From an uncultured archaeon (GTDB taxonomy: Archaea; Aenigmatarchaeota; Aenigmatarchaeia; CG10238-14): a stretch of 58,707 bases of DNA. The stretch lies in assembly GCA_964601485.1 (NCBI GenBank), contig CAZRNP010000001.1, positions 1 to 58,707 of the forward strand, written 5' to 3'. How positions within the stretch are numbered: the first letter of the stretch is position 1; each line of letters opens with the position of its first letter. Shown here piece after piece: positions 1 through 17,464 of the stretch. The notes under the pieces were generated by a model that saw only the letters and a program-made list of their open reading frames with translations, searched no databases and had not been told where the DNA came from. The translations under genes were made by a program, and so were the position numbers.

Positions 1-25
1 AAAAATCAATAGTATTTTGATAATT

Positions 26-589
26 ATGTACAGAATATTGACGATCAAAACCAAGATAAAAGTCCCTCCTACACGGTTTGGGATGCCTTTAAAGCAGGCT
101 ATAAAGGAGAGTATAGCAGAAAGATATGAGAATGTGTTAGATAGGAATTTTGGAATGGGGTTATCTGTCGTTAACGTCAGTGAGATAGGCGAAGGCAAGA
201 TAGTGCCTGGTGACCCTTCTATCCATTATTTGGTTACTTTTGACCTGTTGACCTTTAAGCCAGAATTACATGAAATCATCGTAGGTGATGTCATTGACAA
301 CACAGAATTTGGTTCTTTTGTCAGGTTTGGACCGATGGATGGTCTTGTACACGTTTCTCAACTACTGAACGATTACGTAAGCTATGATGATAAGAATGCT
401 GTTTTCATGGGAAAGGAGACAAAAAAGACGTTGAAAGAAGGGGATCCTGTCAGGGTTAGAGTAATATCGATAAGCATGGCTCCTGGAAAAGAGAATAAGA
501 TAGGCTTGACGATGCGACAGCCAAACTTAGGAGCGTTAGCATGGATTGAAGAAGAGAAAAAAAGAACTAGGAAAGAAGGTAAGAAATAG
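26..589 (+). CDS. rpo7: DNA-directed RNA polymerase subunit E' (Rpo7) with C-terminal S1/OB domain
   Basis: ORF 17..589, first ATG at 26. Rpo7-like N-domain followed by an S1 motif (GDVIDNTEFGSFVRFGPMDGLVHVSQL ... GDPVRVRVISI). Confidence 0.85.
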   Translation: MYRILTIKTKIKVPPTRFGMPLKQAIKESIAERYENVLDRNFGMGLSVVNVSEIGEGKIVPGDPSIHYLVTFDLLTFKPELHEIIVGDVIDNTEFGSFVRFGPMDGLVHVSQLLNDYVSYDDKNAVFMGKETKKTLKEGDPVRVRVISISMAPGKENKIGLTMRQPNLGALAWIEEEKKRTRKEGKK

Positions 590-713
590 ATTATCTTTGT
601 AGTATATACATTAGATTGTAAATAATGAAGGTCGGTATGGTACCGATTGACTATTCTCAAAGTCTAAACTACCTTCTTTAATACATTTTAACCTATTAAA
701 GCTTGAGTTCCAA

Positions 714-742
714 TGGAAGTTCGTCTAATAGTAGTTATATTC
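714..742 (+). repeat. Array-proximal junction: homolog of only the right arm (L'-R') of the downstream attC-like sites, ending in core GTTATATTC
   Basis: gaagttcgtctaatagta|GTTATATTC parallels gaacttcgttaaaaaagttcc|GTTAGCC at 4146-4173. GTTATATTC (734-742) is the exact reverse complement of GAATATAAC (1359-1367). I could not find a convincing left arm. Confidence 0.5.
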
Positions 743-1464
743 AATTCAGCAAAACACACTCGGGGATTTTTCACTCGCAGAATTCTCGTCGCTTTGCTCC
801 TCGTGTAGTTATCCGCTTTTAAATCAAACTTAAATCTTTAATTAATATTATATTTTTAGATGATTTAATGAATGGTCATATCTTAATATATTTATTTGAT
901 GTTATAACCAAAGAAGGCGAAAAGAAGCGTATCGAAAATATTGATTTAGATCCTGAAAGACTTGCTTCTCATAGACCCCTAGAACCTGAAGATTTTCCTC
1001 GATTTGGATATCAACAAACAATTGAATCTCAAAATATAAAATTTCGAGAATACTTAAATGAATTGAACAAACACTATGGTAATGGCCCAAGGTATAAATA
1101 TGCTTTAGAATTACTTAATACTGCTACAGCTATAGTTATGACAGCAGCACTACGTGAAACATCAAAAAGTCCAGCGTTTTAGTAATCCATATAGTAACTT
1201 TTCTAAAAACTGGGCTCGTGAAAAATCCCCTCGTTCTTTCCTTCAACTCGTCAAACCGAGTCAAAGTAAAGGTTTTGCTGAACTATTCGCCGATATTATA
1301 TTTTCTTCAAATAGTCGGCTCGTCCTCCTTCGAACAGTGAAAAGAGAACTCAGTCGGAGAATATAACACCTTTTTGACGCTGGAATTCCTGCAGGTTTTC
1401 GGAATTCGGTCTTACGACACATTCTTTTATACTTCGTTAAATAGAACGTCGTCAAAAAAGAACC
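734..1464 (+). mobile_element. Putative gene cassette 1 (731 bp), boundaries +/- a few nt
   Basis: Starts with GTTATATTC and ends with its own attC-like site, whose left core GAATATAAC (1359-1367) is the exact complement. Inner inverted repeat: CTCGGGGATTTTTCACTCGC (759-778) vs GCTCGTGAAAAATCCCCTCG (1214-1233). Confidence 0.6.
868..1182 (+). CDS. Hypothetical protein (104 aa), cassette 1 ORF
   Basis: ATG-initiated ORF downstream of a TATA-like ttttaaat box (about 817-824). I recognise no family. Confidence 0.5.
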   Translation: MNGHILIYLFDVITKEGEKKRIENIDLDPERLASHRPLEPEDFPRFGYQQTIESQNIKFREYLNELNKHYGNGPRYKYALELLNTATAIVMTAALRETSKSPAF

Positions 1465-1471
1465 GTTAGAT
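1361..1471 (+). repeat. attC-like imperfect palindrome 1 (111 bp)
   Basis: ATATAAC-ACCTTTTTGACGC ... CGTCAAAAAAG-AACC-GTTAGAT. The inner boxes are mutually complementary. The central region is homologous to the other three sites (ggtcttacgacacatt...acttcgtta). Confidence 0.65.
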
Positions 1472-1953
1472 GCAATTCCGAGGCTCGCGCAAATAAGAAT
1501 AAATTTTTAAAAATTCGTAGAATATAAAGGTGAAAAAATGGCTTCAGGTCAATGTGGAAATCTTAATGAGTTATTATGGGCGCAATTAAAAACACTATCT
1601 GATACAGGGAATCCAGGAGCAAAATATGCTATGACGCATATGTATCGTGTAGCGTATTTTTATTACGATAATAGGAACTCTAAGTTAAAAAGTGTTGGTT
1701 TAATAAGAGATAAAGATCGAATGTTAGGTGACTGGTCGGATTATATTGAAATTGAGTTCGATTAATAAAAAAATCGGCGCTCGCCACGGAACTCTTCGTT
1801 CTTTCAGAACTCGCTCTCAGTCGTAGTAATGAAATCATATGACTTTGTCTCCTTCGAGGCATCTAACCCCTTTTATACGCTTCAGCCTTCGGCTTCGGTC
1901 TAACGACAAATTAAAATAAACTTCGTTATTATTAATTTCGCATAAAAGGATCC
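1465..1953 (+). mobile_element. Putative gene cassette 2 (489 bp)
   Basis: Left end GTTAGATGCAATTCCGAGGCTCGCGC (1465-1490). Right end GCGCTCGCCACGGAA (1777-1791), a 67-nt insert, then GCATCTAAC (1859-1867), followed by the attC-like site. Confidence 0.65.
1538..1765 (+). CDS. Hypothetical protein (75 aa), cassette 2 ORF
   Basis: ATG preceded by aaaggtga (SD-like) and an atttttaaaaatt TATA-like box. No recognisable family. Confidence 0.5.
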   Translation: MASGQCGNLNELLWAQLKTLSDTGNPGAKYAMTHMYRVAYFYYDNRNSKLKSVGLIRDKDRMLGDWSDYIEIEFD

Positions 1954-1960
1954 GTTGTAC
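1861..1960 (+). repeat. attC-like imperfect palindrome 2 (100 bp)
   Basis: ATCTAAC-CCCTTTTATACGC ... GCATAAAAGG-ATCC-GTTGTAC. It shares a 51-nt stretch with site 3 (1906-1956 vs 2492-2542) with one mismatch. Confidence 0.7.
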
Positions 1961-2539
1961 GCCATATTACTCGATTTTTCGCTCGCCCATCTTCTCGTCG
2001 TTTCACTCCTCGCGTAGTTACCGCGTTCTTAAATAAAGTATTTTAATAGTGAATTTCAAAATTAGATTATGAAGTTGAAAGAATTTTTGAAACCAACTAT
2101 ATGGAAAGTGATAATTTTTATCATCCTTCTAATTTTAACTTCTGTTTTTAATTATGCTACTTACTGCCCTGAATGCACAAGAGCAGCCTATGGTTTTCCA
2201 TTAGCATTGTATGAATTGCCTGGCTGTAAACCTGTTTCTGCAGAAGGATGCCCAGGATATAGAGTAATATATTCTGCCTTGATAGTTGATTTAATATTTT
2301 GGTATTTGGTTTCTTGTCTCATAGTTTGGTTTTACGATAAGCGTAAGAAAAAATCCTAAATTCCAACTCGCGAAAAATCTGCGTTACACCGCTTCATTGC
2401 ATTCGCGCCTCACTTCACTTCGTTTTGTTCGGGGCGTACAACACCTTTTATACGCTTGCGCTCCTCATCCTTGCGGTGCTCGGTGCTTCGCACAAATTAA
2501 AATAAACTTCGTTATTATTAATTTCGTATAAAAGGATCC
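1954..2539 (+). mobile_element. Putative gene cassette 3 (586 bp)
   Basis: Left end GTTGTACGCC (1954-1963) plus CTCGATTTTTCGCTCGCC (1970-1987). Right end ACTCGCGAAAAATC (2366-2379), a 53-nt insert, then GGCGTACAAC (2433-2442). Confidence 0.65.
2069..2359 (+). CDS. Small membrane protein (96 aa), cassette 3 ORF
   Basis: Hydrophobic helices at both ends (WKVIIFIILLILTSVF; LIVDLIFWYLVSCLIVWF) flank a Cys-containing loop. Confidence 0.55.
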   Translation: MKLKEFLKPTIWKVIIFIILLILTSVFNYATYCPECTRAAYGFPLALYELPGCKPVSAEGCPGYRVIYSALIVDLIFWYLVSCLIVWFYDKRKKKS

Positions 2540-2546
2540 GTTAGAT
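2436..2546 (+). repeat. attC-like imperfect palindrome 3 (111 bp)
   Basis: GTACAAC-ACCTTTTATACGC ... CGTATAAAAGG-ATCC-GTTAGAT. The inner boxes form 11 perfect complementary bp. Confidence 0.7.
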
Positions 2547-4166
2547 GCAATTCCGAGGCTCGCGCAATAGGTTTTTTATATTCATAAAGAAAAATAACAA
2601 ATATGAAAGGTCAATCATCTATTGCCATAATAGTTATTCTAATTATCACATCTATTATGGTTGGTGGAACTTATTATGTAACTCAGATGAAGACATCAAC
2701 TACTACAACAACCATAACAACTACAATAATATCAACAATTTCTACCACAAGTAGCAGTACGACAACATCAACAATTTCAACATCTACTACGCTACCACAA
2801 ACTACTACAACAATCGAAATTACGTCTGTTTGTAGTGATGGATTTTGTGAAATTGGAGAAGATCAAATAAACTGTTGCAGGGATTGTGTATGTTCTTATG
2901 GTTCACTATGTGAATATAATATAAAATGTTCTTCTTCCTTAGTTAGGACACTTGCTTCTCTTGATAATCTTTCTTTAGAGGAGAGATTCAAATTATTAAA
3001 TGATATGCATGGATTGCAAAAAATGACATTAAATGATTTTTATTCGTTTCTTGAGTCCAAATTAGAAGACAATAATTATGTATCAGTTGAGTTCGGTGAA
3101 AGTCATAGTTCAGAAAAAGAACAAGAAATAGCAACAAATTTAATTGATTTTATTGCATCAAAACGTTCTATTTATGAATTTGCTATTGAAAGTCACATTG
3201 CTGTGCGTGAAACAGGAGCTAAAGAAACCGTATATACTTATAACATTTCAAATTTTCAATCAACGTTAAATAAATATAACATAAAGATTAGTAATTTAGG
3301 AAATTCAATTTCTAATGATTTATTTTGTAGTGAAATTAAAGGAAAGATACAATCAATGAGAAATAATCTAAATGACGTTTTACTAACATATACAGGACAT
3401 GGACATATCTCGAAAGAAACTTGTTATTATCCAGATATTTGGGATACGTGTTTACCTCCACATATCAAAGAGTGTGTGAGCCAATTAAATAAAAAATCTA
3501 TAGCTATAATATTAGTAGATACGGAACGAATATCTCCAACTATTGATCATAATTTTGTTTTCAAGATGGTAAAAAGTTCCAGTTCTAGTATAGATAATTT
3601 AATTTCAGATTTCATAAACAAATGGAATTCTATAATGAGTAATGAACCCGATGAAACTTATGTAGTAAAATCGAAATACGATGAAGATGTATATTTTGTG
3701 TTAATACCAAATAAAGAAACAAAAGCAAAATTTACAACAGCGTTTAATATAGTCTGGAATAACCAAACACTAAAAGATTATATGATAAATAATGATATAT
3801 TGAAATTTTGTTGTTCTTTTGGTACTAATTGGCAAATTTATGGTTTCGATCCTTCAATTGTTGTAGTTCGAATACATGATCCAAACAACAGTGGAGAAAC
3901 AGTATTAAGTGTTGCCGTTAATATAGATTTAGGAACAATAAAAGAAATTCTTGTACCTAAATTATAAATAACAATCTATAATTCTATAAAAAACCGCGCT
4001 CGCCTCGGAACTCTTCACCTTCGGTTCGCTCTCAGTCGTTGAATTGAAGTCATGTCAATAGCCTCCTTCGAGGCATCTAACACTTTTTTAACGCTTCGCT
4101 GTCGCTCGGTGCTTCGCACAAATTCTTTTTATACTGCGTTAAAAAGAACTTCGTTAAAAAAGTTCC
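2540..4166 (+). mobile_element. Putative gene cassette 4 (1627 bp)
   Basis: The left end, extended 2 nt upstream (2538-2566), is identical over 29 nt to that of cassette 2 (1463-1491). Right end GCGCTCGCCTCGGAA (3996-4010), a 62-nt insert, then GCATCTAAC (4073-4081). Confidence 0.65.
2603..3967 (+). CDS. Membrane-anchored secreted protein (454 aa): TM helix, Thr/Ser-rich stalk, Cys-rich segment, unknown domain; cassette 4 ORF
   Basis: N-terminal helix SSIAIIVILIITSIMVGGTYYV, then a long T/S run, then CSDGFCEIGEDQINCCRDCVC. I do not recognise the rest. Confidence 0.7.
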   Translation: MKGQSSIAIIVILIITSIMVGGTYYVTQMKTSTTTTTITTTIISTISTTSSSTTTSTISTSTTLPQTTTTIEITSVCSDGFCEIGEDQINCCRDCVCSYGSLCEYNIKCSSSLVRTLASLDNLSLEERFKLLNDMHGLQKMTLNDFYSFLESKLEDNNYVSVEFGESHSSEKEQEIATNLIDFIASKRSIYEFAIESHIAVRETGAKETVYTYNISNFQSTLNKYNIKISNLGNSISNDLFCSEIKGKIQSMRNNLNDVLLTYTGHGHISKETCYYPDIWDTCLPPHIKECVSQLNKKSIAIILVDTERISPTIDHNFVFKMVKSSSSSIDNLISDFINKWNSIMSNEPDETYVVKSKYDEDVYFVLIPNKETKAKFTTAFNIVWNNQTLKDYMINNDILKFCCSFGTNWQIYGFDPSIVVVRIHDPNNSGETVLSVAVNIDLGTIKEILVPKL

Positions 4167-4173
4167 GTTAGCC
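4075..4173 (+). repeat. attC-like imperfect palindrome 4 (99 bp)
   Basis: ATCTAAC-ACTTTTTTAACGC ... TCGTTAAAAAAGT-TCC-GTTAGCC. The central ggtgcttcgcacaaatt is shared with site 3. Confidence 0.65.
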
Positions 4174-4760
4174 AAAATTACTGGAGACACAGTCGAAAAT
4201 TTTCACTCGCCACGTAATTATCCAAAATACGTCATTACTAAATAGTTACTACAGAATAGAAAAGTTTAAAAACTTTACTTCATTATTCAATAACAATAAA
4301 ATTTGTGATGTGAATGGCGTACAAAGCAGAACAAGCATATTTATTCGTTACAGAAAATTATCTTAATGAACTTAAACAGTCAATAGATCACCCTTCTCCT
4401 ACTTTAGCGAAAGTATTAGAGAAAGTAGCTGGAAAACCCATATTCAAAGGGTTTGACCCTAAAGTTAAAGCTCAAATTGAAATAATTCCTGGAGTACATT
4501 ATCCAGGATCAGATGCACAGACATTTTGTATAAGAAAATACTTTAAAGGTTTCGGAAAAGAATATTCAGGTAAGAATTGTGTTACATCGGAACTTTTTGA
4601 AGATATAGACTTTTCGACAGCTAGGTCTATAAATATAAAATTATTAAAATTGATGGAAGCTTATTCACAAAATAAAAAACAATAAGTTTCGGCTCGTGAA
4701 AATTTTCTCCTTCTTGATTTCAACTAACTTCGAAAGTCAAAATCAAGGTCTCCAGTAACC
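4167..4760 (+). mobile_element. Putative gene cassette 5 (about 594 bp), last in the array, with no full attC-like site after it
   Basis: Left TTACTGGAGAC (4178-4188) plus GTCGAAAATTTTCACTCGCC (4192-4211). Right GGCTCGTGAAAATTTTC (4691-4707), a 40-nt hairpin insert, then GTCTCCAGTAA (4748-4758). Confidence 0.5.
4314..4685 (+). CDS. Hypothetical protein (123 aa), cassette 5 ORF
   Basis: ATG ORF with no recognisable family. Confidence 0.5.
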   Translation: MAYKAEQAYLFVTENYLNELKQSIDHPSPTLAKVLEKVAGKPIFKGFDPKVKAQIEIIPGVHYPGSDAQTFCIRKYFKGFGKEYSGKNCVTSELFEDIDFSTARSINIKLLKLMEAYSQNKKQ

Positions 4761-4843
4761 TTCGCTCGCATGAACTCGCTCGCCCTTCGGATACATTTGA
4801 TTAAAAAGAAATCATTTTATTCTCAATTTTTCAATAGTAATTC

Positions 4844-5332
4844 ATGAAGAAATTAATCTTATTGACCATTTTTATAACATTCTTAATATCTCTATACACG
4901 ATAAATGCCATTGATTGTACTGGTTCGACTTCATTAGTTTTATCACCAAACCTTGTCGAAGGCGAATCTGAAGTTAAAGCTATTGTAACAGGTTTAACGG
5001 ATACAACATGCTACGGTAAAATTATACAAATAACTCGTGATTCCTGTTCTGGGCCAAAGATTTGCAATTGTGAATCAAAAGGCATGGGTTGTTCTTGTTC
5101 ATTTAAGGCAACATTGCCTTCTATAGGAATCAGGTACTTTCAGAATGAATACAGGTACTATGCTTGCGTGGATAAGAACGGGAACGGGGATTTCTTAGAC
5201 TCTGGAGAACAGGCTTTTACAACGTTAACAGTCCGAAGAAAGGTTCCTTTAATACCATTAGGTGCTATTGAAATGATTAGTCAAACACTTAAAAGCTTTG
5301 CCGAGGCATTTGCTCATCTTTTTAAACTTTAG
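4844..5332 (+). CDS. Secreted Cys-rich hypothetical protein (162 aa)
   Basis: Signal-peptide-like N-terminus (KKLILLTIFITFLISLYTINA) and many Cys. It lies directly upstream of spt4. Confidence 0.6.
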   Translation: MKKLILLTIFITFLISLYTINAIDCTGSTSLVLSPNLVEGESEVKAIVTGLTDTTCYGKIIQITRDSCSGPKICNCESKGMGCSCSFKATLPSIGIRYFQNEYRYYACVDKNGNGDFLDSGEQAFTTLTVRRKVPLIPLGAIEMISQTLKSFAEAFAHLFKL

Positions 5333-5359
5333 TTTGATTAATAATAAGGAAGTGGTATA

Positions 5360-5551
5360 ATGGTTAAGAGACAATATGTTTGCAGGAATTGTAGAAGGTT
5401 CACGATGGAGAAGGAATGCGTTGTTTGTAAGTCAAAAGACCTTTCAGCTAGTTGGAAGGGGTTAGTTATAATAATCGACCCAAATGAATGCGAGATAGCA
5501 AAGAACCTGAGTATAACAACCCCTGGAAAATATGCTTTGTTCGTGGGATGA
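5360..5551 (+). CDS. spt4: Transcription elongation factor Spt4 (RpoE'')
   Basis: Zinc ribbon CRNC...CVVC followed by SWKGLVIIIDPNECEIAKNLSITTPGKYAL, the typical archaeal Spt4 pattern. Confidence 0.85.
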   Translation: MVKRQYVCRNCRRFTMEKECVVCKSKDLSASWKGLVIIIDPNECEIAKNLSITTPGKYALFVG

Positions 5552-5931
5552 AGATGAAAATAGATGTTTTAGAAAAAAAAGAGAACCCGTTCTTGAAGAG
5601 AATTGATTTACTGTTATTAGTAGATCATGATAAACAACCGACCCCAAGGAAGGATGAATTGGCTAAAGCGATAGCAGAAATGTTCAAGTCTGTCCCAGAG
5701 AAAGTTGAGACAATATACATCTTCTCAGAAGTTGGGGCTACAAAAGCGAGAGTTAAAGCAAGGGTTTGGGAAGAGAAACCACCAGAAAAAAAGAAAAAGA
5801 AGAGAGAAGAGAGGTCAAAGGAAGAAAAACCCGTTGAAAAGAAAGAAGAGACTAAACCAGAAGAGAAACCTAAGGAAGAGAAGGCTAAAGAAAAACCAAA
5901 AGAAGAAAAGAAGGAGGGTGAGAAGAAGTGA
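5548..5931 (+). CDS. rps24e: Ribosomal protein eS24 with a Lys/Glu-rich C-terminal extension
   Basis: I take the internal ATG at 5548 (ATGA overlap with the spt4 stop) in ORF 5488..5931. The eS24-like core is [35 protein letters not shown]...; the tail is a KE/KP-rich run. Confidence 0.8.
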
Positions 5932-6098
5932 AACACAAATTAGTCAAACAGTGGGATATACTGAAGGTGGAAGGTAATTCAATAAAAAGATTGAAAAAGG
6001 CATGTCCTAGGTGTGGGGCTGGAACTTACATGGCAGATCATAAAGATCGCTATTTCTGTGGAACTTGTCATATGACTGAATGGAAAAAGAAAGAATAG
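5928..6098 (+). CDS. rps27ae: Ribosomal protein eS31 (S27ae), zinc ribbon
   Basis: Not in the ORF track (GTG start, 56 aa). My translation is [60 protein letters not shown] overlap with the eS24 stop. Confidence 0.75.
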
Positions 6099-6120
6099 GT
6101 ATCAGCCTTTATTTTTAAAC

Positions 6121-6867
6121 TCACTGAATCGTTAAGCCACCATCGACGACTATACATTCTCCTGTAACATAACTAGATTCTTCAGATGCTAGAAAAACAA
6201 CTAGATTGGCTATATCTTCTGGTAGGCCAAACCTCTTCAAGGGCACTGTTCCTGTAAAACCTTTTCTAGTTTCTTCATCCATTGCCGACGTTGCTCCAGG
6301 TGTATCTATTACCCCAGGTGCGATCGCATTAACGTTTATTTTAAAAGGTGCCAATTCTAATGCTAATGCCTTCGTTAAACCAGCTATACCAGCTTTGGAT
6401 GCACAATAATGAGTTAGGCCAACGTACCCAACCCTCGTACCAGCTATAGAAGCTATGTTTATTATCTTACCGTATTTTTGCTTGGCCATCGTAGGAGTTA
6501 CGGCTTTTGTACAATTGAAAACACCTTTTAGGTTGATGTTCAAGACTTTATCCCAATCATCTTCTTTCATCTCTAAAAAACTTTTAAAAGGAAATATACC
6601 AGCGTTGTTCACTAGTATATCGATTCTACCGAATTTTTTTATTGTTTCTTTAGCCATTTCTTCTGTCTGTTGATTGTTTGAGACATCAGCCTTTATCGCT
6701 AAAGCTTGTGAGCCTAATGCTTCTATCTCTTTGACGACGTCGTTAACCCTTTCTGATATATCAGAAACTACTACTTTTGCCCCTTCTTTTGCTAGGGCTA
6801 ATGCAATACCTTTTCCTATACCTTGGCCTGCACCGGTAACGATTGCAATTTTATTCTTTAATTTCAT
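6121..6867 (-). CDS. Short-chain dehydrogenase/reductase (FabG-like)
   Basis: TGAGQGIGKGIA dinucleotide motif, NNAG, and catalytic YCASK. Confidence 0.85.
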   Translation of the reverse strand: MKLKNKIAIVTGAGQGIGKGIALALAKEGAKVVVSDISERVNDVVKEIEALGSQALAIKADVSNNQQTEEMAKETIKKFGRIDILVNNAGIFPFKSFLEMKEDDWDKVLNINLKGVFNCTKAVTPTMAKQKYGKIINIASIAGTRVGYVGLTHYCASKAGIAGLTKALALELAPFKINVNAIAPGVIDTPGATSAMDEETRKGFTGTVPLKRFGLPEDIANLVVFLASEESSYVTGECIVVDGGLTIQ

Positions 6868-6922
6868 GTTTTAATTATTAGGAGTTAATATTAAAGTATT
6901 ATAGACTTTTGAGGCTGACTAT

Positions 6923-8050
6923 ATGAATAGTTTTACTAAAAACGGAGAAAGGTTGAGAAGTCAGATATTTACAAACCTTCTAAAAAAAGTTGATCCTTTC
7001 TATGAAATACCTGTTAAAAATGGTCAACTTAATGAAAATGAACGGAATATTTTGAAATCTGCCTTACTCAAAAGCAAAGAACAAAGAAAAGTATATGGCG
7101 TGAATAAAAGCAACATTGATGAGGTTTTGGATAAAAGGTTAAAGTTATTCGCTGATGTATGGAGAGAATTCGAAGATTTAAGGATAAACGGATTAAAAAT
7201 ACCAGAAGACTTAACTTTGCGTCTCTGGAATGTTTACATACCTACTGATGAATGGATAGTTAATAAAAGAAGAAAGATTCCTGAAGATAAAGCCTATGTT
7301 TTGGGGATAAACGGTGGTCAGGGTTCTGGGAAGTCTACTCTAGTAGCAGTACTAAAGTTATTGCTCAAGAAATGGGGATATGATGCAGTTGCGGTATCTA
7401 TAGATGATTATTATCTGACTTATGAAGAGAGAGAAACATTGAAAAGGAGTGTGCCATTTTATTGGGCTAGAGGTCCGCCCGGCACACACAACGTAAAATT
7501 AGGCATAAATACATTCAGAAAATTGAAAAATAAAAAACCAGTTGAAATACCTGTGTTCGATAAGAGTTTGAAGAAAGGAGTTGGAGATAGATTACCCAAA
7601 GAAAGATGGCAAAAAGTAAATAGAGCAGATATAGTCTTGTTTGAAGGTGGCTGGGTAGGTTGTAGACCTGTACAAGAGAAAGAGTTAGATAAATCAACTG
7701 GAAATGAACTGATAGATAGGGTTGAAAAAAGAGATGATCCAAAAGGTAAATTCCGTAAAATAATTAATCGAGCACTAGAGAAATATCGTTCTTGGTTTGA
7801 CATTTGTGATAACTTGTGGGTATTGAAAGTTAGTTTACAACAAATAAGAGAAGGAAGGGGATTACAGGAAAGAAAATTGAGGGATGAAAAAGGAACGGGA
7901 ATGACTGATGAGGAAGTGGAAAGATTCTTAGATTATTGGGCACCTCCTACTTGGAGGTATATTTTACCTCTGAGTGAAAGCAAATACGCTGATATTGTTT
8001 TCGAAATAGGAGAAAATCATGATATTAAAAGATTGATTGCTAAAAAGTAG
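6923..8050 (+). CDS. P-loop kinase (uridine-kinase/PRK/glycerate-3-kinase-like)
   Basis: Walker A GINGGQGSGKSTLV followed by SIDDYYLT. The family call rests on motif resemblance only. Confidence 0.5.
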   Translation: MNSFTKNGERLRSQIFTNLLKKVDPFYEIPVKNGQLNENERNILKSALLKSKEQRKVYGVNKSNIDEVLDKRLKLFADVWREFEDLRINGLKIPEDLTLRLWNVYIPTDEWIVNKRRKIPEDKAYVLGINGGQGSGKSTLVAVLKLLLKKWGYDAVAVSIDDYYLTYEERETLKRSVPFYWARGPPGTHNVKLGINTFRKLKNKKPVEIPVFDKSLKKGVGDRLPKERWQKVNRADIVLFEGGWVGCRPVQEKELDKSTGNELIDRVEKRDDPKGKFRKIINRALEKYRSWFDICDNLWVLKVSLQQIREGRGLQERKLRDEKGTGMTDEEVERFLDYWAPPTWRYILPLSESKYADIVFEIGENHDIKRLIAKK

Positions 8051-9226
8051 TTAACCACATTTCTTCAACGTTCTCATTATTCTTTTATGTGTCTCTTCAA
8101 TCGTCAGAGCAGCAGTATTCAACTTTATACAAGGAACCATCGAGAACAAGAGTGAAAAATAATGTTCTTGCAGTTTTTCATTCAGATCTATTTGATAAGG
8201 ATAAGGATTGTACCAAGCTTCAGACCCTAACGTTCCCCACATCTCCTTTGGCCCTGCACCAGGCCTTATCATCAATTCACCCTTCCTCAACACTTCAATA
8301 GCTTCGTCTGATTTTAAAATCATCTCTGCAGGGTTTCCAGGCACTCTCTCCAATAGGATAATCAGATTTAATCTTGTTTTATCTATGACTTTTTCTGGTC
8401 CTAACAGTTTCTCACGTGGAACCATTACTCTGGAGTTACCAAAGGCATAATAACACCATTCCTTCCCTTCATCAAACACACATTTTCTCTCCCCTTTCTT
8501 ACATTCTTCTAAACAAACAGGATTCTCACAATCTTTTTTACTGATAACAATGTTCTCACACTTACATTTGTCAAAGATAGGACGTAGCCATGGAAAATCT
8601 TTCTCGTTCTCTGTACGCATGTACAAGCTCTTCTCTGGTTGTGTGACAATCAAGGCTGGTTTAGGGTTGCCTTCTTGGAAATTCACGTAGACCCAATCAT
8701 CACCGAGTATCCTGCCATCTGGACGTAAGAATAACTTAAAAGATTGTGTTGTCTTTCCAGTGCCAGTAGGAGCGATTAACACTACACCCTTACCGTTTAT
8801 ATCAGTACAAGCACCGTGGATGGAATGTATACCAAACTCTTCTGATAGTATGGCTGATGATGGTCCTAAAGTTCCCCTACTCTTACATTGTCCGTAATAA
8901 TCGTAGTTAATGAAGATGGATGTACGCCTCTCTGGGCAATAATAGATTGTTGGGTCCGTCCCATCAACACCATCAAGTGAATACAAGAATACACGTGAAG
9001 GTACGTCATCTGAAAGTAACCAGTTCTCCCTCCAGAATTCAAACTGATGGATGTTGTTCGTGATGAGCTCAACACCTATGCCGTTTAAGTTGGCTTTTGC
9101 TCTGTAGGTTTCTGGTTTTAGGAATTCAGGGATGATACCACTCAAGAGTTTATCTAGTTGACTCTTGTTGATAATCTTGTTAACTTTCACTCGGGATTTT
9201 TCACGTGTTGTGTAGTTGTCTAACAA
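8051..9226 (-). CDS. HprK/PEPCK-fold P-loop kinase-like protein with a Cys-rich insert
   Basis: GKGVVLIAPTGTGKTTQSFKLFLRPDGRILGDDWVYV resembles the HPr-kinase/PEPCK nucleotide-binding core. Cys cluster: CKCENIVISKKDCENPVCLEECKKGERKC. Confidence 0.45.
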   Translation of the reverse strand: MLDNYTTREKSRVKVNKIINKSQLDKLLSGIIPEFLKPETYRAKANLNGIGVELITNNIHQFEFWRENWLLSDDVPSRVFLYSLDGVDGTDPTIYYCPERRTSIFINYDYYGQCKSRGTLGPSSAILSEEFGIHSIHGACTDINGKGVVLIAPTGTGKTTQSFKLFLRPDGRILGDDWVYVNFQEGNPKPALIVTQPEKSLYMRTENEKDFPWLRPIFDKCKCENIVISKKDCENPVCLEECKKGERKCVFDEGKEWCYYAFGNSRVMVPREKLLGPEKVIDKTRLNLIILLERVPGNPAEMILKSDEAIEVLRKGELMIRPGAGPKEMWGTLGSEAWYNPYPYQIDLNEKLQEHYFSLLFSMVPCIKLNTAALTIEETHKRIMRTLKKCG

Positions 9227-10109: not shown

Positions 10110-11261
10110 ATGGATACTATAATGCAAAGTGCATTGAAGAGAACTTTTGGAAATGAGACTGAATGTTTTGATAGGTTTAAGTTACAAACCAATTCTGGTG
10201 TAACGAAAACAAATATCGATTACTTCAAACAGGCTGAGGAAGAGTTTGGTTTCTCGGTTAAGAAGGCAAGGATCGTAGTGTTTGGATGTGGTGGAGCTGG
10301 ACAAAACACAGTAACCAGATTAAATGAAATGGGAATTCAAGGCGCTAACACTATCTCGATAAATACTGACGCCAAGGCCTTGACAGTAGGTAAAGCAGAT
10401 AAGAAGATCCTTCTCGGTAAGGATGTTACTAGAGGACTAGGTGCTGGTGGTTATCCAGAAATTGGTAAAAAGGCTGCTGAAGAAGAGAGGAATGAAATTA
10501 AAGAAGCGTTAGAAGGAGCTGACTTAGTCTTCGTTTGCGCAGGTGAAGGTGGAGGTACAGGAACTGGATCTGCTCCTGTCGTAGCAGAAATTGCAAAATC
10601 GATGAACGCCATCGTTATAGGAGTTGTAACTATGCCCTTCAAGATTGAAGGTGCGAGGATTGGAAAAGCAGAAGACGGTCTAGCAAGATTAAGAGGAGTA
10701 ACAGACACAGTCATCGTGATAGAGAACGATAGGTTGTTGAAGTATGCTGGTAACTTACCGATTCAACAGGCATTCGCGTTCGCAGATGAACTGATCGCAT
10801 CGATGGTAAAGGGAATAACCGAAACGATTACATTGCCTTCATTGGTTAACGTAGACTATGCAGACGTAAGAGCGATAATGCATGCTGGTGGTGTAGCCGC
10901 TCTAGGTGTAGGTGAGAGCAACAGTTCTGACAGAGCTATGGATGCTGTTACAAAAGCTTTGACTAATCCATTGTTGGATGTTGACTATACTGGAGCAAAG
11001 GGTGCATTGATACACATAACTGGTGGCAACGACCTAAGGCTGGACGAGGTAAATGCAATCGGACAAACAGTGTCTCAATATCTAGACCCATCTGCCCAAG
11101 TAATATGGGGAGCAAGAATCTTACCAGAGTTCAACGGAAAGGTACAAGTTATATCGATCATAACCGGAGTACAATCGCCTTACATACTAGGACCTGTCTC
11201 TTGTGAAAAGCCAGTCTTGAGAGAGATGAGTCAAGCACTCGGTATCGACATAATAAGATAA
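10110..11261 (+). CDS. ftsZ: Cell division protein FtsZ
   Basis: GCGGAGQN, the tubulin signature GGGTGTGSAPVVAEIAK, and GLGAGGYPEIG. SD-like aggagg upstream. Confidence 0.95.
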   Translation: MDTIMQSALKRTFGNETECFDRFKLQTNSGVTKTNIDYFKQAEEEFGFSVKKARIVVFGCGGAGQNTVTRLNEMGIQGANTISINTDAKALTVGKADKKILLGKDVTRGLGAGGYPEIGKKAAEEERNEIKEALEGADLVFVCAGEGGGTGTGSAPVVAEIAKSMNAIVIGVVTMPFKIEGARIGKAEDGLARLRGVTDTVIVIENDRLLKYAGNLPIQQAFAFADELIASMVKGITETITLPSLVNVDYADVRAIMHAGGVAALGVGESNSSDRAMDAVTKALTNPLLDVDYTGAKGALIHITGGNDLRLDEVNAIGQTVSQYLDPSAQVIWGARILPEFNGKVQVISIITGVQSPYILGPVSCEKPVLREMSQALGIDIIR

Positions 11262-11289
11262 TGCTTAAAAGGGATGAACACCCCCTCCC

Positions 11290-11304
11290 TTTTTCTTTTT
11301 TTTT
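11290..11304 (+). terminator. Oligo-T tract after ftsZ (archaeal-type terminator candidate)
   Basis: tttttcttttttttt lies about 30 nt after the ftsZ stop. Confidence 0.4.
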
Positions 11305-11337
11305 GGGAAAATCAAAGAGGTGAAAATTAAAGTGATA

Positions 11338-11523
11338 ATGGAAGATGTAATATTTAGCTTGATAAAGAAGGAGAAAGAAGTAAAAGGAATGGTCTACGAC
11401 CCAAAGATAATGAAGATGGCAACTTTACTGAACATACACCCTGATGCTTACGAGAAAGTTAAAGAAAGGCTTATTGAACAAGGAAAGATAGGAAAGAGCG
11501 GTCTCAAACTGCTTCTTCTCTAA
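11338..11523 (+). CDS. Small hypothetical protein (61 aa from the ATG; GTG at 11320/11332 also possible)
   Basis: ORF 11320..11523 with aagaggtga upstream. Possibly a winged-helix-like fold, but that is a guess. Confidence 0.4.
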   Translation: MEDVIFSLIKKEKEVKGMVYDPKIMKMATLLNIHPDAYEKVKERLIEQGKIGKSGLKLLLL

Positions 11524-11675
11524 TCCTTTTTCTTTTTTTATTTTATATAATAAATCTTAGAATTCTTGTCATAAGTTTTGGATAGGTTAGCATCCAATCT
11601 TTATTTTTTCATAACAACTTTACTCCATCAAAATCTGTTTATATGCTATTTGAGAATTATCAGTTGGTGTTCAAG

Positions 11676-11801
11676 ATGCTATGCAAATACTGTAATGGGT
11701 ATGTGAATTACAGGTTTATTCATGGCTTAACGAAGACTGAGATATGTTTACTATGTGGCAACGTCACGAATAAAAACAGGATTTTCATGACCTTCTTTTA
11801 A
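11676..11801 (+). CDS. Small zinc-ribbon protein (41 aa)
   Basis: Not in the track. My translation is MLCKYCNGYVNYRFIHGLTKTEICLLCGNVTNKNRIFMTFF (CxxC...CxxC). Confidence 0.35.
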   Translation: MLCKYCNGYVNYRFIHGLTKTEICLLCGNVTNKNRIFMTFF

Positions 11802-11880
11802 TTTTTTTAATAATCGTATAATAAAATAAAAAGGAGAAATCTTTTTATATATTAATGATATAACTGATAAGTGGTTAATA

Positions 11881-12477
11881 ATGCCTATTCATATAGTCGG
11901 ACTTGATACTAGAAGACTGGTGGTACCCAAAGTTATAGGTAAAAATTTACATGGTTTAACTAGCCTTTTGGAAGAGACGAAGGGTGCTCTCATTTATCCT
12001 AGAGGTTTAACTTATACACCTCTAAAAACTCTACCAGAAAAAGACTATGTTGCTTACATGTATATCACAGGTACTGGACCTCCTCTTTGTGTTCCAGGCG
12101 ATATTAGACGAAATATGGTAGTGAACACATTTTTAGAAAGAAATCCAGACTACAGATTCGTCGACTTTCACACACACAGCAAAGGTACAATCGCGAAATA
12201 TGGAAAGTACTATTTAAGTAATTTTTCTCCCGGAGATGAAGAAGCCATCAGAGACAGTTTTAAAAATAATCCAGATTATAGACATTTACTTGTTACACCT
12301 GCAAGATTTAAATTAGTTGGTAGAAATCCACATACAGGAGAAGTTGTTGGTCAGAGATTTACTATGGAGAATTATCGCGGATTTCAAAGTTTTAATCAAA
12401 TTATCCGTGAAGCATTTGCAAAAATAAAGAAGGATTTAGGGTATAATTTAGAACCTTTTGAAGCTAATAGAATTTAA
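11881..12477 (+). CDS. JAB/MPN (JAMM) metalloprotease-like protein
   Basis: A JAMM-like motif: FHTHSKGTIAKYGKYYLSNFSPGD (HxH...SxxD). Confidence 0.55.
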   Translation: MPIHIVGLDTRRLVVPKVIGKNLHGLTSLLEETKGALIYPRGLTYTPLKTLPEKDYVAYMYITGTGPPLCVPGDIRRNMVVNTFLERNPDYRFVDFHTHSKGTIAKYGKYYLSNFSPGDEEAIRDSFKNNPDYRHLLVTPARFKLVGRNPHTGEVVGQRFTMENYRGFQSFNQIIREAFAKIKKDLGYNLEPFEANRI

Positions 12478-15398: not shown

Positions 15399-16034
15399 TC
15401 ACGAATCGGATTTTTTATGTTTTTCTAAAAGTTCTTTTATTTGTTGTATGTTTTCTTGTTTTCCTTTATCTCTTATTGATCTGGCTGCATTTGTGAAATA
15501 CGAATGGGCTTCTAGAAAACTAAGTTGTTCCTTATACCATTCTTTAACTGTTTTTGGCATACCATATTCTCTTAATTCTTTTCTTAAGTTTTCACTCTTA
15601 ACAAAGAAATCTTCTCTACCGAGGGAATCCAAATCTGAATCACACATTATTTTTTGTAAAATATCTCTCGTATCAGGTTTTTGTATAAGTTTACCATCTA
15701 CTGATTGTAATGGTGTTGCCAGAATTATTTTACTAATTCTGTAAATTTGGCCTTTAGAATATCCAAAACGTGGTAAAGTTTCAGATGCAATTCTAACGCC
15801 TATAGGTTCATTTTTTGCATATTGCTCTAGATAACCAGTATCATGATATACTGTGGCAGTTCGTAATAGTAACAAATCTTCACCCTTAACTCTTTCCATT
15901 TTTGCTAATCTTTCTGCAGCTGGTAATACGTCATCTCTTGTATGATGAATATCATGATAGAATAGATTTGATGGTAATTTTTGCAGTAATTCAAATGCAT
16001 ATTCTCTTGCAGCTTCAAAATTCGGTTTTTGCAT
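15399..16034 (-). CDS. HD-domain phosphohydrolase
   Basis: YHDIHHT...YHDTGY...DSDLDSLG. The gene is flanked by cassette-type ends (see findings). Confidence 0.75.
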   Translation of the reverse strand: MQKPNFEAAREYAFELLQKLPSNLFYHDIHHTRDDVLPAAERLAKMERVKGEDLLLLRTATVYHDTGYLEQYAKNEPIGVRIASETLPRFGYSKGQIYRISKIILATPLQSVDGKLIQKPDTRDILQKIMCDSDLDSLGREDFFVKSENLRKELREYGMPKTVKEWYKEQLSFLEAHSYFTNAARSIRDKGKQENIQQIKELLEKHKKSDS

Positions 16035-16104
16035 ATTTTTATGAGTAATTTACCTATTTTTAAACATTTCTATACTTTTGTCACTAAGTGATAATTACAC
16101 TACT

Positions 16105-16163
16105 GGATAACTACGTGGCGAGTGAAAATTTTCGACTGTATCTCCAGTAATTTTGGTTAACGG
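16105..16163 (-). repeat. Inverted copy (56/59 identical) of the cassette-5 left end at 4165-4223
   Basis: The reverse complement is ccgttaaccaaaattactggagatacagtcgaaaattttcactcgccacgtagttatcc. The copy at 4165 is ccgttagccaaaattactggagacacagtcgaaaattttcactcgccacgtaattatcc. Confidence 0.9.
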
Positions 16164-16224
16164 CTATTTTTAATGTTATAAAAACAATTCTTATTAAAAA
16201 TTAAAGTTTCTTAATAATATCTAA

Positions 16225-16300
16225 GGGGTAGTGGTCTAGCCTGGTCTATGACACCAGCTTGGGGTGTTGGTAATCCCGTGTTCAAATCACGGCTACCCCA
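16225..16300 (+). tRNA. tRNA-Pro (anticodon GGG)
   Basis: Hand-folded cloverleaf: acceptor GGGGTAG/CTACCCC, anticodon arm CCAGC-TTGGGGT-GTTGG, T arm CCGTG-TTCAAAT-CACGG, G37, A73; 76 nt. Confidence 0.9.
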
Positions 16301-16303
16301 TTT

Positions 16304-16459
16304 TTATAAATGTTTCATTAGAATTTCTTCAATTTCATCTTTTTTATGAAAATTCAAATGGATTTTTCTCTTATTACCATGTGGAAACCTAACGATTAAA
16401 CCTTCTCTAACCATATTATCCAACTCTTTCATGATTTCTTTTCTTATTTCAGGTGGCAT
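16304..16459 (-). CDS. Small protein (51 aa), possibly a wHTH fragment
   Basis: Not in the track. My translation is MPPEIRKEIMKELDNMVREGLIVRFPHGNKRKIHLNFHKKDEIEEILMKHL. It is divergent from 16548 and ends 3 nt from tRNA-Pro. Confidence 0.4.
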   Translation of the reverse strand: MPPEIRKEIMKELDNMVREGLIVRFPHGNKRKIHLNFHKKDEIEEILMKHL

Positions 16460-16471
16460 ACCTTTAGTATC

Positions 16472-16546
16472 AAAGCGTATACGTATACCTTAAAATATAT
16501 TTTTAACCACAGAAAAATTTAAATTAAAAAAAGCGTATACGTATAC
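16472..16546. promoter_or_regulatory. Divergent promoter region bracketed by two 17-bp direct repeats AAAGCGTATACGTATAC (each contains GTATAC twice)
   Basis: Copies at 16472-16488 and 16530-16546, with an AT-rich TATA-like sequence between them. One copy abuts the ATG at 16548; the other is 12 nt from the minus-strand ATG at 16459. Confidence 0.6.
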
Positions 16547-16547
16547 T

Positions 16548-16760
16548 ATGAAAGAAAAAGTAGCTTTAATTTTTGATATCCCAAGAAGGTTGGCTCCACT
16601 TAGATCAAAAATTCATAGACGGTTGAATAAAATTAATGCTGAAAAAATTCAGGATTCCATTTGGACATCTAATAGAATTGATTTGTTAATTGAGCTTGCG
16701 GATGAGATAAGAAGTTCAGGTGCTTCAGCGCAGGTTTTAAAAATTAAGGTTATTAAGTGA
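16548..16760 (+). CDS. Small protein (70 aa) with a Cas2/VapD-like beta-alpha-beta-beta-alpha-beta pattern (tentative)
   Basis: VALIFDIP...LRSKIHRRLNKINAEKIQDSIWTS...IDLLIELADEIRSSGASAQVLKIKVI matches the Cas2-like secondary-structure pattern by eye only. Confidence 0.35.
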   Translation: MKEKVALIFDIPRRLAPLRSKIHRRLNKINAEKIQDSIWTSNRIDLLIELADEIRSSGASAQVLKIKVIK

Positions 16761-17461: not shown

Positions 17462-17464
17462 TCA

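Follow-up and report, generated by a model that had tools for sequence, protein, structure and literature searches.

A probable integron-like gene-cassette array in an Aenigmatarchaeota genome and its link in relatives to a Xer-type recombinase

Introduction

Integrons are the textbook system of gene capture, and their Xer-like origin and the way in which their cassettes are made are open questions. In chromosomal integrons and in clusters of attC sites lacking integron integrases (CALINs), for example the Vibrio superintegron with its Vibrio cholerae repeats (VCR), small open reading frames (ORFs) of mostly unknown function lie in an array on the same strand (PMC9668308). Here we examined 58,707 nucleotides of DNA from an uncultured Aenigmatarchaeota archaeon (the window), in which an integron-like array of five cassettes and four attC-like sites, with no integrase, had been predicted at 714-4760 from the letters alone (the original prediction). 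Alignment to a relative (locus L063) showed that the inserted block is actually 592-5318. This block is very probably an integrase-less array of an integron-like gene-capture system, which in relatives is tied to a Xer-type tyrosine recombinase without the I2 helix.

Integrons and CALINs had been described from archaea before, as the original prediction had correctly stated: Ghaly et al. (2022) reported Aenigmatarchaeota metagenome-assembled genomes (MAGs) with 4-5 attCs and 0 integron integrase (IntI) (PMC9668308). By definition, the integrase of an integron is a tyrosine recombinase that carries an extra domain, specific to IntI, around patch III (Messier and Roy 2001, cited in PMC9668308). 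Escudero et al. 2016 and 2020 describe how IntI became able to recombine folded single-strand sites by gaining the I2 helix (PMC4792948, PMC7790495), a shift away from double-strand recombination (PMC7790495). The sequences of our sites are absent from the supplements of Ghaly et al. (PMC9668308), which give taxonomy only. No description of an integron-like system with an I2-less Xer-type recombinase and a dif-like attI, in DPANN archaea or in bacteria of the candidate phyla radiation (CPR), was found in the literature, which we covered incompletely.

In single-recombinase Xer modules (XerS/difSL and XerH/difH), the dif site lies beside the recombinase gene. CTX-phi, an integrative mobile element exploiting Xer recombination (IMEX), enters the chromosome in the form of a folded single-stranded hairpin, through a single strand exchange carried out by a Xer enzyme without the I2 helix; its integration by XerCD would be a second precedent, besides integrons, for a single-strand route. 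Both bacterial and archaeal dif sites are composed of 11-bp arms and a 6-bp spacer (PMC2958812).

Results and Discussion

Four attC-like sites and their folding

Four attC-like sites were found on the + strand, at 1359..1467 (site 1), 1859..1956 (site 2), 2433..2542 (site 3) and 4073..4169 (site 4), and all coordinates and sequences quoted in the original prediction are present in the window. The four sites align with a mean column identity of 69%, and a pattern written from them has 4 matches, as against 0.00 expected in shuffles. A relaxed form of the pattern, scanned over 241 million metagenome records, yielded 46 loci (denoted below by L numbers), and a scan of the GTDB representative genomes yielded one locus, in a Lac Pavin Aenigmatarchaeota MAG; viral contigs gave 0 matches. 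Three loci of the metagenome scan, L008, L019 and L045, were excluded as apparent chance matches to bacterial DNA of no relation. The short motif CCTTTTATACGC, allowed 3 mismatches, was uninformative (41 matches versus 44 expected).

A covariance model trained on 60 sites from the contigs collected in these scans, with zero window sequence, independently recovered exactly the four predicted sites from the 58.7-kb window, all on the + strand, with scores of 91.5-109.8 bits (E 3e-18 to 2.5e-22); the next best match in the 58.7 kb scored 12.6 bits (E 1.7). The matches span 1356-1476 for site 1 (91.5 bits, E 3.3e-18), which also folds as single-stranded DNA (ssDNA), 1856-1965 for site 2 (94.8 bits), 2431-2551 for site 3 (108.8 bits; bottom-strand fold z = -3.35) and 4070-4178 for site 4 (109.8 bits, E 2.5e-22). 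With start-to-start distances of 500, 575 and 1639 nt and no recombinase in 58.7 kb, the four sites agree with the definition of a CALIN, namely two or more attC sites separated by under 4 kb and no intI in the vicinity (PMC9668308), the sites being called here with the family model of this analysis and not with the IntegronFinder model. By class, the array in the window is CALIN-like.

The layout of the sites is that of attC. As in integrons, the ORF is followed by a foldable imperfect palindrome of the form R''(RYYYAAC)-L''...L'-R'(GTTRRRY), and the sites are highly similar within the genome; the cores match RYYYAAC in part only (e.g. GTTGTAC, GTTATAT). Site 1 is composed of R'' GAATATAAC, L'' CCTTTTTGACGC, inner hairpins, L' CGTCAAAAAAG, the spacer AACC and GTT. 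The predicted asymmetry of spacing was borne out, R'' and L'' being 1 nt apart and L' and R' 4 nt apart. In canonical attC sites, either side has a central spacer of about 5 unpaired nt, and there are two or three extrahelical bases. The sites described here differ from them in this 1-nt/4-nt spacing, which leaves a 3-nt bulge between the boxes, and in having up to three small hairpins in the site centre.

On the 60-site alignment, pairing was tested for AAC/GTT, for the L''/L' helix of 11 bp and for one inner hairpin of 7 bp. Standard pairs occupied 92.1% of the cells versus 77.1% after shuffling, and the covariation score was 0.337 versus 0.109; 0/500 shuffles reached the observed value in either case, and slid registers were 38-51% paired. 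Double-sided changes occurred in 10 pairs, the outermost L pair, for example, being CG in 27, AU in 23 and GC in 3 sites. The L''/L' stem was 94.2% paired with compensatory changes at 6 pairs, and the inner hairpin showed compensatory changes as well, in agreement with the predicted site model and its hairpins. AAC and GTT were paired in 98.9% of the cells, both triplets having been fixed beforehand by the search pattern. The covariation is not circular, because the covarying positions were N in that pattern. The helices were set by hand and hairpins 1 and 2 were left uncounted because the inner hairpins are misaligned between families; RNAalifold on a MAFFT alignment recovered the L helix only. 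The outer cores are unpaired within a site, as had been claimed: their six variable bases were 61.9% paired, the same as in shuffles (61.9%). Judging from the covariation, the sites are under selection for intrastrand pairing. As in integrons, the bottom strand folds better: as ssDNA it is the more stable strand in 63 of 64 sites (-14.6 versus -12.4 kcal/mol), and top-strand A.C mismatches, which correspond to G.T wobbles in the bottom strand, are more numerous than the opposite case (26 versus 10). Given the relatedness of the sites, this strand preference is no more than suggestive.

Cassettes and their core sequences

The original prediction counted five cassettes; four are complete, whereas the fifth is truncated and has no site of its own. 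Cassette 1 (735..1465, +) comprises a 5' module (735-~780), an ORF (868-1182; 104 aa), a 3' module and its attC-like site, and its start core GTTATATTC (734-742) is complementary to its end core GAATATAAC (1359-1367). Cassette 2 (1466..1954, +) has an ORF of 75 aa (1538-1765) and the core pair GTTAGATGC (1465-1473) and GCATCTAAC (1859-1867). Cassette 3 (1955..2540, +) encodes a membrane-like protein of 96 aa (2069-2359), and its cores GTTGTACGCC (1954-1963) and GGCGTACAAC (2433-2442) are complementary over 10 nt. Cassette 4 (2541..4167, +) carries an ORF of 454 aa (2603-3967) with an N-terminal membrane segment and a Thr-rich linker, between the cores GTTAGATGC (2540-2548) and GCATCTAAC (4073-4081); an exact-protein lookup gave no record for this ORF. 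No Pfam family was found on any of the five cassette ORFs, which all lie on the same strand.

Cassette 5 (4168..4790, +) has a 5' module (4168-~4225), an ORF of 123 aa (4314-4685) and a 3' module (4686-~4790), and no R''/L'' site. Cassettes in L044, L014, L016 and L043 have modules with 88-98% identity to its own, and these counterparts run on into ...GGTTCGGCTAAC and a full site. The homology of cassette 5 ends at ~4785-4790, about 25 nt short of the expected R''; thus the cassette lacks a site because it is truncated. The sequence GTCTCCAGTAAC at 4748-4759 was considered as an R'' of cassette 5 and rejected, being part of the conserved 3' module.

Each end core is the reverse complement of the start core of its own cassette in 4/4 cases in the window, over 9-10 contiguous nt. 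This rule of the original prediction persisted when more copies were collected: among 34 cassettes or adjacent site pairs from the 46 metagenome loci, 27 had at least 7 contiguous complementary nt (GTT included), compared with about 18% at random. As in integrons, this is the result expected when crossover at G|TT makes the R'' of a cassette match its own start. The complementarity reaches far past the 9-nt core, the first 30-45 nt of a cassette pairing with its own 3' untranslated region (UTR). The duplex of 5' and 3' modules has a mean of -18.6 kcal/mol versus -11.3 kcal/mol (standard deviation 2.9) for other core types. In cassette 1 the first ~46 nt pair with -25.6 kcal/mol (rank 0/40 against other cassette types), and the duplex of cassette 4 has -25.3 kcal/mol. 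Because a complementarity of 9-10 nt in the R box is joined to 30-45 nt of 5'/3' pairing, the conserved recombination element would be about 250-300 nt here, unlike that of integrons. A bulge-helix-bulge RNA processing stem was considered for the 5'/3' pairing and rejected, the mismatch pattern being unsuitable.

The modules are combined with different genes. The 5' module of cassette 1 is also present in L006, L014 and L054 with other cargo, and that of cassette 3 resembles it (repeat D10). Cassettes 2 and 4 have a common 5' module and a common 3' module of ~100 nt around unrelated ORFs (repeats D1, D6, D12 and D3). Between the 5' module and the ORF there is an AT-rich TATA-like box, 25-45 nt ahead of the start codon, and cassettes probably bring their own promoter; in this, too, they appear to differ from integron cassettes. 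The ORF is in the direction of the array in 37 of 46 cassettes.

One chassis, with modules 88-94% identical, holds unrelated cargo in opposite orientations: the 123-aa ORF on the + strand at window 4168-4790 and a 161-aa ORF on the - strand at L044 5689-6509. The cargo thus seems exchangeable inside a conserved, potentially hairpin-forming frame. The rare cargo with a Pfam match comprises a PIN-domain toxin fragment and an FkbM-type methyltransferase (cassettes L017 1946-3147, with a - strand ORF, and L021 200-1590).

Cassettes in different genomic contexts

Cassette 2 of the window (1465-1953) is also found at L002 8726-9216 (JAPLUX010000018.1, from the Lac Pavin Aenigmatarchaeota MAG), where it is 98.8% identical over 491 nt, lies downstream of polB and has different neighbours on both sides. 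The identity begins at ..CC|GTTAGATGC, despite upstream sites of different families, and ends at ..GGATCCGTT|; the predicted break of homology at CC|GTT is thus seen at the borders of a single cassette. Other loci show similar rearrangements. L003 and L013 share the first cassette and differ downstream, and L014 and L025 share one cassette and differ upstream.

The L' families combine freely with the starts of the next cassettes; GCATAAAAAT, for example, precedes ten different starts. The mutual information between R'' and L'' was 1.30 (0.98 permuted) and that between L'' and L' was 2.14 (0.95 permuted), and in both cases 0/2000 permutations reached the observed value. Between L' and the next R' it was 1.29 versus 1.36 permuted, which 1580/2000 permutations reached. 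Linkage is therefore intact along R''-L''-L' and broken only between L' and the next R'. Loss at exactly this position is the mark of site-specific exchange at the 3' end of the site, and homologous recombination within repeats would not leave it. Crossover at G|TT, with the last 6-7 bases of a site belonging to the next cassette, agrees with these borders. On this comparative evidence, the cassettes are discrete units bounded at G|TT, which occur in differing orders and contexts across genomes.

The interval between rpo7 and spt4 varies accordingly among relatives. In L063 (GCA_030018415.1; rpo7 86% identical) spt4 follows 54 nt after rpo7 and the interval is empty. In L065-L068 (rpo7 87% identical) it contains a head, a single unrelated cassette with a 135-aa ORF and a truncated site, and in the window it contains five cassettes. 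Cassette order and content are thus not fixed in relatives, which was one way in which the original prediction could have failed. Mobility, the core rule, covariation and the variation of this interval together support its proposal that the units are, or were, excised and inserted by a recombinase encoded elsewhere.

Alternatively, the sites could be immobile structured repeats, such as RNA hairpins, terminators or elements like repetitive extragenic palindromes (REP) and miniature inverted-repeat transposable elements (MITE), with the order of genes changing by homologous recombination and the 5'/3' pairing acting in mRNA. The sites are similar enough for homologous recombination, each ORF is bracketed by a long inverted repeat with potential pairing of 5'UTR and 3'UTR, and the intergenic spacers are long for a small genome. 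However, at the left border of cassette 2 identity starts at most 4 nt from GTT although the upstream sites belong to different families, and the L' family is unlinked to the type of the next cassette while R'', L'' and L' are linked to one another. There is also no Rfam family match, and the sites are consistently associated with a tyrosine recombinase and a core-type attI (see below). Because the promoter-like boxes lie downstream of the 5' module, this module would be outside the transcript of its own cassette. We consider immobile repeats very improbable.

The array head and the recombinase of relatives

Upstream of cassette 1 there is a conserved array leader (602..717, +), which is homologous to the region between the recombinase gene and attI in relatives. 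By blastn it is 74-87.5% identical to the leaders of L044, L006, L049, L025, L003, L013, L012, L043 and L034. Within the leader lie the palindrome TCGGTATGGTACCGA (632-646) and a TATA-like TATACATTTTAA box. The palindrome is kept in nine other array heads and may be a binding site for a regulator or an accessory protein.

The leader is followed by an attI-like core site (718..745, +), which is composed of the left arm AGTTCGTCTAA (718-728), the 6-bp spacer TAGTAG (729-734) and the right arm TTATATTCAAT (735-745), with which cassette 1 begins. As read from the letters, such sites have inverted arms of 8-11 bp and a 6-bp spacer, and 8/11 arm positions are symmetric in the GTTAGATGCAAT-type attI. 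The site at 718-745 thus has the inverted arms and 6-bp spacer of a dif-type target (PMC2958812). The left arm TCGTCTAA fits the same loose consensus, KCRTMTAA, as the R and L boxes, and the covariance model of the sites gives a weak match at 718-745. The sequence TTCGTCTAAYAG(G)TAGTT, followed by a variable cassette start, heads every array whose beginning lies on a contig, and was seen in this position in at least 11 loci. The attI-like site, which lies beside a divergent Xer-like gene in 11 relatives, would be an insertion point, and crossover would fall at G|TT between 734 and 735; the head in the window has no recombinase gene.

No recombinase was found in the 58.7-kb window, either among 40 ORFs searched against Pfam or by tblastn with the array-linked protein, and the predicted absence of an integrase is thereby upheld. 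A candidate does exist beside the homologous array head in relatives. It is a tyrosine recombinase of 271-288 aa, divergent from the head and 36-220 nt from attI in 11/11 contexts, with protein identities of 41-95%, CPR bacteria included. Starting from the sites, L006, L044 and L029 were found to carry a recombinase of 276-288 aa on the opposite strand, 88-159 nt from the head. Starting from the protein, a search gave 6976 proteins at E <= 1e-30, and 8/8 of the homologs looked up (47-95% identical; L049, L051, L054, L055, L058, L056, L059/60 and L061) were preceded, at 36-220 nt and on the opposite strand, by an attI-like arm-6-arm site and an array of cassettes in keeping with the core rule. 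For these relatives, such an attI-like head beside a divergent tyrosine recombinase is a further likeness to integrons.

The array-linked recombinase is as close to IntI as to XerA by the profile and model comparisons made here. Its Pfam domains are Phage_integrase and SAM_4. The proteins of L006 and L044 score 233.5 and 244.5 bits with NF040815 (recomb_XerA_Arch) and pass its cut-off of 220, whereas TIGR02249 (integron integrase) gives 209-212 bits in two stretches, under its cut-off of 265. The family profile matches Pyrococcus abyssi XerA (4a8e) in one stretch (8e-70) and VchIntIA (2a3v) in two (2e-68), with residues 186-237 of IntI4 against 10 profile positions. An AlphaFold2 model (predicted local distance difference test 85.2) had 2a3v as the best Foldseek match (E 5.6e-18, template modelling score 0.74-0.80, 33% identity), 276 residues being spread over 316-321 columns of the alignment. 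The recombinase thus lacks about 42 residues where IntI4 has an unmatched segment of 52 residues, consistent with lengths of 271-288 aa versus 320 for IntI4. We take residues 186-237 of IntI4 to be the IntI-specific I2-helix domain, which presumably contacts the extrahelical bases of folded attC sites. In this lack, and in passing the XerA and not the IntI model, the system differs from integrons; the recombinase of relatives does not have the IntI-specific additional domain, and the window has no recombinase at all.

An ordinary CALIN of a canonical integron would require a true IntI elsewhere and would make the neighbouring Xer-like gene an unrelated housekeeping XerA. Canonical archaeal IntIs and Aenigmatarchaeota attC clusters minus IntI are on record (PMC9668308), and canonical integrons have the same layout, R''-L''...L'-R' with AAC/GTT, and crossover at G|TT. 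However, no IntI-type gene was seen in any of ~60 loci, whereas the Xer-like gene is divergent from the head in all 11 contexts at the distances and identities given above, which reach into CPR. The leader between this gene and attI is conserved as a unit, and in one relative (L065) about 50 nt of the recombinase 5' end are kept beside an integrase-less head, between rpo7 and the leader. A canonical integron with a distant IntI is, in our estimate, improbable. The short remnant of the recombinase 5' end (ATGAAATCCGATCCTGT...) occurs at two integrase-less heads, L065 (~8590-8640) and L002 (~8100-8130), and its retention suggests that such heads arise by deletion of the recombinase gene and do not have a separate origin. 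Unlike integrase-less clusters of integrons, these arrays retain their own leader and attI.

The resemblance to Xer/dif raises another reading, in which the recombinase is the sole chromosome-dimer resolvase, attI is dif and the cassettes are IMEX-like elements stacked at dif. The recombinase has the size, domains and profile match of archaeal XerA and passes the XerA model. The attI has the geometry of dif, with 11-bp arms, 8/11 of whose positions are symmetric, and a 6-bp spacer (PMC2958812), and the CPR gene lies in a conserved housekeeping neighbourhood (glycosyltransferase, holB-like and POTRA genes). Tandem integration at one site is also a feature of IMEXs, and a site beside the recombinase gene is a feature of XerS and XerH modules. 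In contrast to Xer/dif and IMEX systems, there are dozens of different small cassettes with one structured site family, each cassette has its own core complementarity, and the cargo consists of single genes and not of phages or genomic islands. Several heads per genome are possible, at varying loci. One MAG (GCA_026397455.1) has two array heads, on contig 73 (L055, with a recombinase) and contig 18 (L002, without one), which is awkward for dif and argues against a single site. Heads are found at varied places, namely after rpo7, after polB, beside Nop5 and in the interval between MFS and M24 genes, and the dif sites of Thermococcales do not adjoin xerA (PMC2958812). We therefore regard the dif reading as unlikely, though with an appreciable chance of being right; it overlaps with an integron-like system using a Xer-type recombinase and does not exclude it.

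Single-strand transposons of the IS200/IS605 kind, or palindrome-associated transposable elements (PATE), with hairpin ends and an HUH (Y1) transposase would also have subterminal hairpins and strand asymmetry. However, neither the window nor any of the loci has a TnpA-like gene, the units invariably stand in tandem, in one orientation and behind a single head site, and the associated gene is a tyrosine recombinase. Such transposons have next to no probability here.

The same layout with other arm and L-box sequences was observed in L056, in Moranbacteria (GCA_000992055.1) and in a Patescibacteria MAG. The starts in these loci read GTTNNNNNNAAT, and R'' fits the start of its own cassette at 9/9 or 9/10 nt. 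The generic site finder missed the sites of Moranbacteria (L059) and gave spurious matches, and those sites were read by eye. The shared layout indicates that the system spans DPANN archaea and CPR bacteria, on the basis of few loci, partly read by eye. In L056 the first cassette (2392-4067, - strand) is a complete restriction-modification system, with an N6_N4 methyltransferase and an MvaI/BcnI endonuclease, bounded by GTTAAGTGA and TCACTTAAC. In L059/L060 (- strand), ~770 nt separate the L'' of one site from its L', at ~700-1480 nt upstream of the start of the recombinase. The gap holds an ORF of 158 aa on the opposite strand, between the halves of a separate inverted repeat, CCAGAGAATGAATTTATAATTTTTTC / GAAAAAAATTATAAATTCATTCTCTGG; this unit looks like a nested insertion in the loop of a putative site. 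Directly downstream of the recombinase of L049 there is a 400-aa ORF (11014-12216) with a weak LAGLIDADG_3 match.

A possible mechanism and its implications

The array is composed of a leader, a double-stranded dif-like attI core, four complete cassettes and a fifth minus its site, and each complete cassette of a 5' module, its own promoter-like box, an ORF, a 3' module and an attC-like site of ~100 nt. In the mechanism we propose, recombination between the flanking sites would excise a cassette as a circle, rejoining R'' with its own start core (R') and the 3' module with the 5' module. The circularised cassette could then form a single long imperfect hairpin of ~250-300 nt, running through 3' module, R'', L'', inner hairpins, L', R' and 5' module, with the crossover inside the stem. 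Reinsertion would occur at attI or at another site, and insertion at attI would put the cassette first. The folded site, which is predicted to be stabler as the bottom strand, would present two recombinase-binding arms, an R box of the GCATCTAA|C type and an L box of the GCGTATAA type, separated by an asymmetric spacer of 6 nt versus 9 nt. With these spacers it would mimic the attI/dif geometry with a 3-nt bulge. Cleavage would take place at the border between R-box arm and spacer, at AA|C on the bottom strand and G|TT on the top strand, as the junctions show. The exchange would use either double-stranded core sites or, as integrons do, a folded single strand whose product is resolved by replication. 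The enzyme would be the 271-288-aa Xer-type tyrosine recombinase, not a canonical IntI, and for the array in the window it would either act in trans from outside the window or the array would be frozen.

Several points weigh against this interpretation. The window lacks a recombinase gene, and the last of its cassettes is degraded; in view of the missing recombinase this array may now be inactive. A recombinase without the I2 alpha-helix may use a double-stranded pathway instead, and the two halves of the site, R''-6 bp-L'' and L'-9 bp-R', both resemble double-stranded core sites. The search pattern fixed AAC, TTTT, CGCT, TCG, AAAA and CCGTT, so their invariance proves nothing. Every inference of mobility is comparative, and locus counts overstate the number of independent events because the contigs are related and some are near-duplicates.

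What is new here is the tie to an I2-less Xer-type recombinase, the dif-like attI with its leader, the truncated last cassette and the presence in CPR. Whether there is a separate and widespread lineage of gene capture in DPANN (Aenigmatarchaeota) and CPR/Patescibacteria, in which an I2-less Xer-type recombinase joins attC-like sites with a dif-like attI, is to us an evenly balanced question; such a lineage could be ancestral to the integrons with IntI or independent of them. Arrays with the comparative hallmarks of integrons, namely the G|TT junction, cassette-specific cores, covarying hairpins and presence/absence variation, are tied here to a recombinase without I2. With a defined recombinase and defined sites, it can be tested whether an I2-less enzyme acts on folded sites or takes the double-stranded route. 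If such a separate lineage exists, many CALINs in such genomes would be complete systems whose integrase escapes current detection rules. Where the IntI domain is a requirement for detection, whole systems may go unnoticed in the two prokaryotic radiations that are the most reduced and the least cultured, and there these arrays could be among the main ways of gaining genes. The cargo seen includes restriction-modification, a PIN toxin and surface proteins; the first two are cargo known from integrons as well. The reuse of one 5'/3' chassis with unrelated and even inverted cargo bears on the question of how cassettes form.

Genomic context of the array

The host is a DPANN archaeon, and the G+C content is about 34%. 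The insert of ~4.7 kb (592-5318) lies between rpo7 and spt4 of the Aenigmatarchaeota chromosome. It is an insertion, because window 26-591 and 5319-5549 align to the two sides of the junction in L063, the former to L063 8001-8566. The left flank is rpo7/rpoE' (26..589, +; Pfam SHS2_Rpb7-N and S1), whose closest homologs (86-94% identity, Aenigmarchaeota) are named RNA polymerase subunit E', and the right flank is spt4/rpoE'' (5360..5551, +; Pfam Spt4), followed by rps24e and rps27ae. By blastn the 4.7-kb insert had no match in plasmids and phages, and a search of window 1-7000 for Rfam families (E <= 1) and tRNA gave nothing.

The remainder of the inserted block (4791..5318, +) is absent from the empty site of L063, with which homology picks up again at window 5319. 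It includes most of an ORF (4844-5332) of 162 aa with a signal-peptide-like start and no Pfam family. No similar DNA for 4791-5318 was found among the fetched loci, and this segment may be left over from a cassette.

In the relative with the empty site, the next gap, between spt4 and rps24e (~560 nt; L063 8811-9371), contains a HicA-toxin-like ORF on the other strand (L064 8876-9004). The rpo7-spt4-rps24e operon is a repeated target of small insertions. The interval between the MFS and M24 peptidase genes is a second variable region (window 15399-18832 versus L049 7800-14775). L049 is a relative of the window genome (73-80% nucleotide identity, gene order shared) and its integron lies in this interval, which contains the recombinase, attI and cassette(s); in the window the interval contains unrelated genes, including an ORF with a NOV_C domain. 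Three very large ORFs of the window, 27903-31508 (1201 aa), 34638-40775 (2045 aa) and 40815-45368 (1517 aa), probably encode surface proteins of the DPANN archaeon; two of them have no Pfam domain and one has DUF2341 only.

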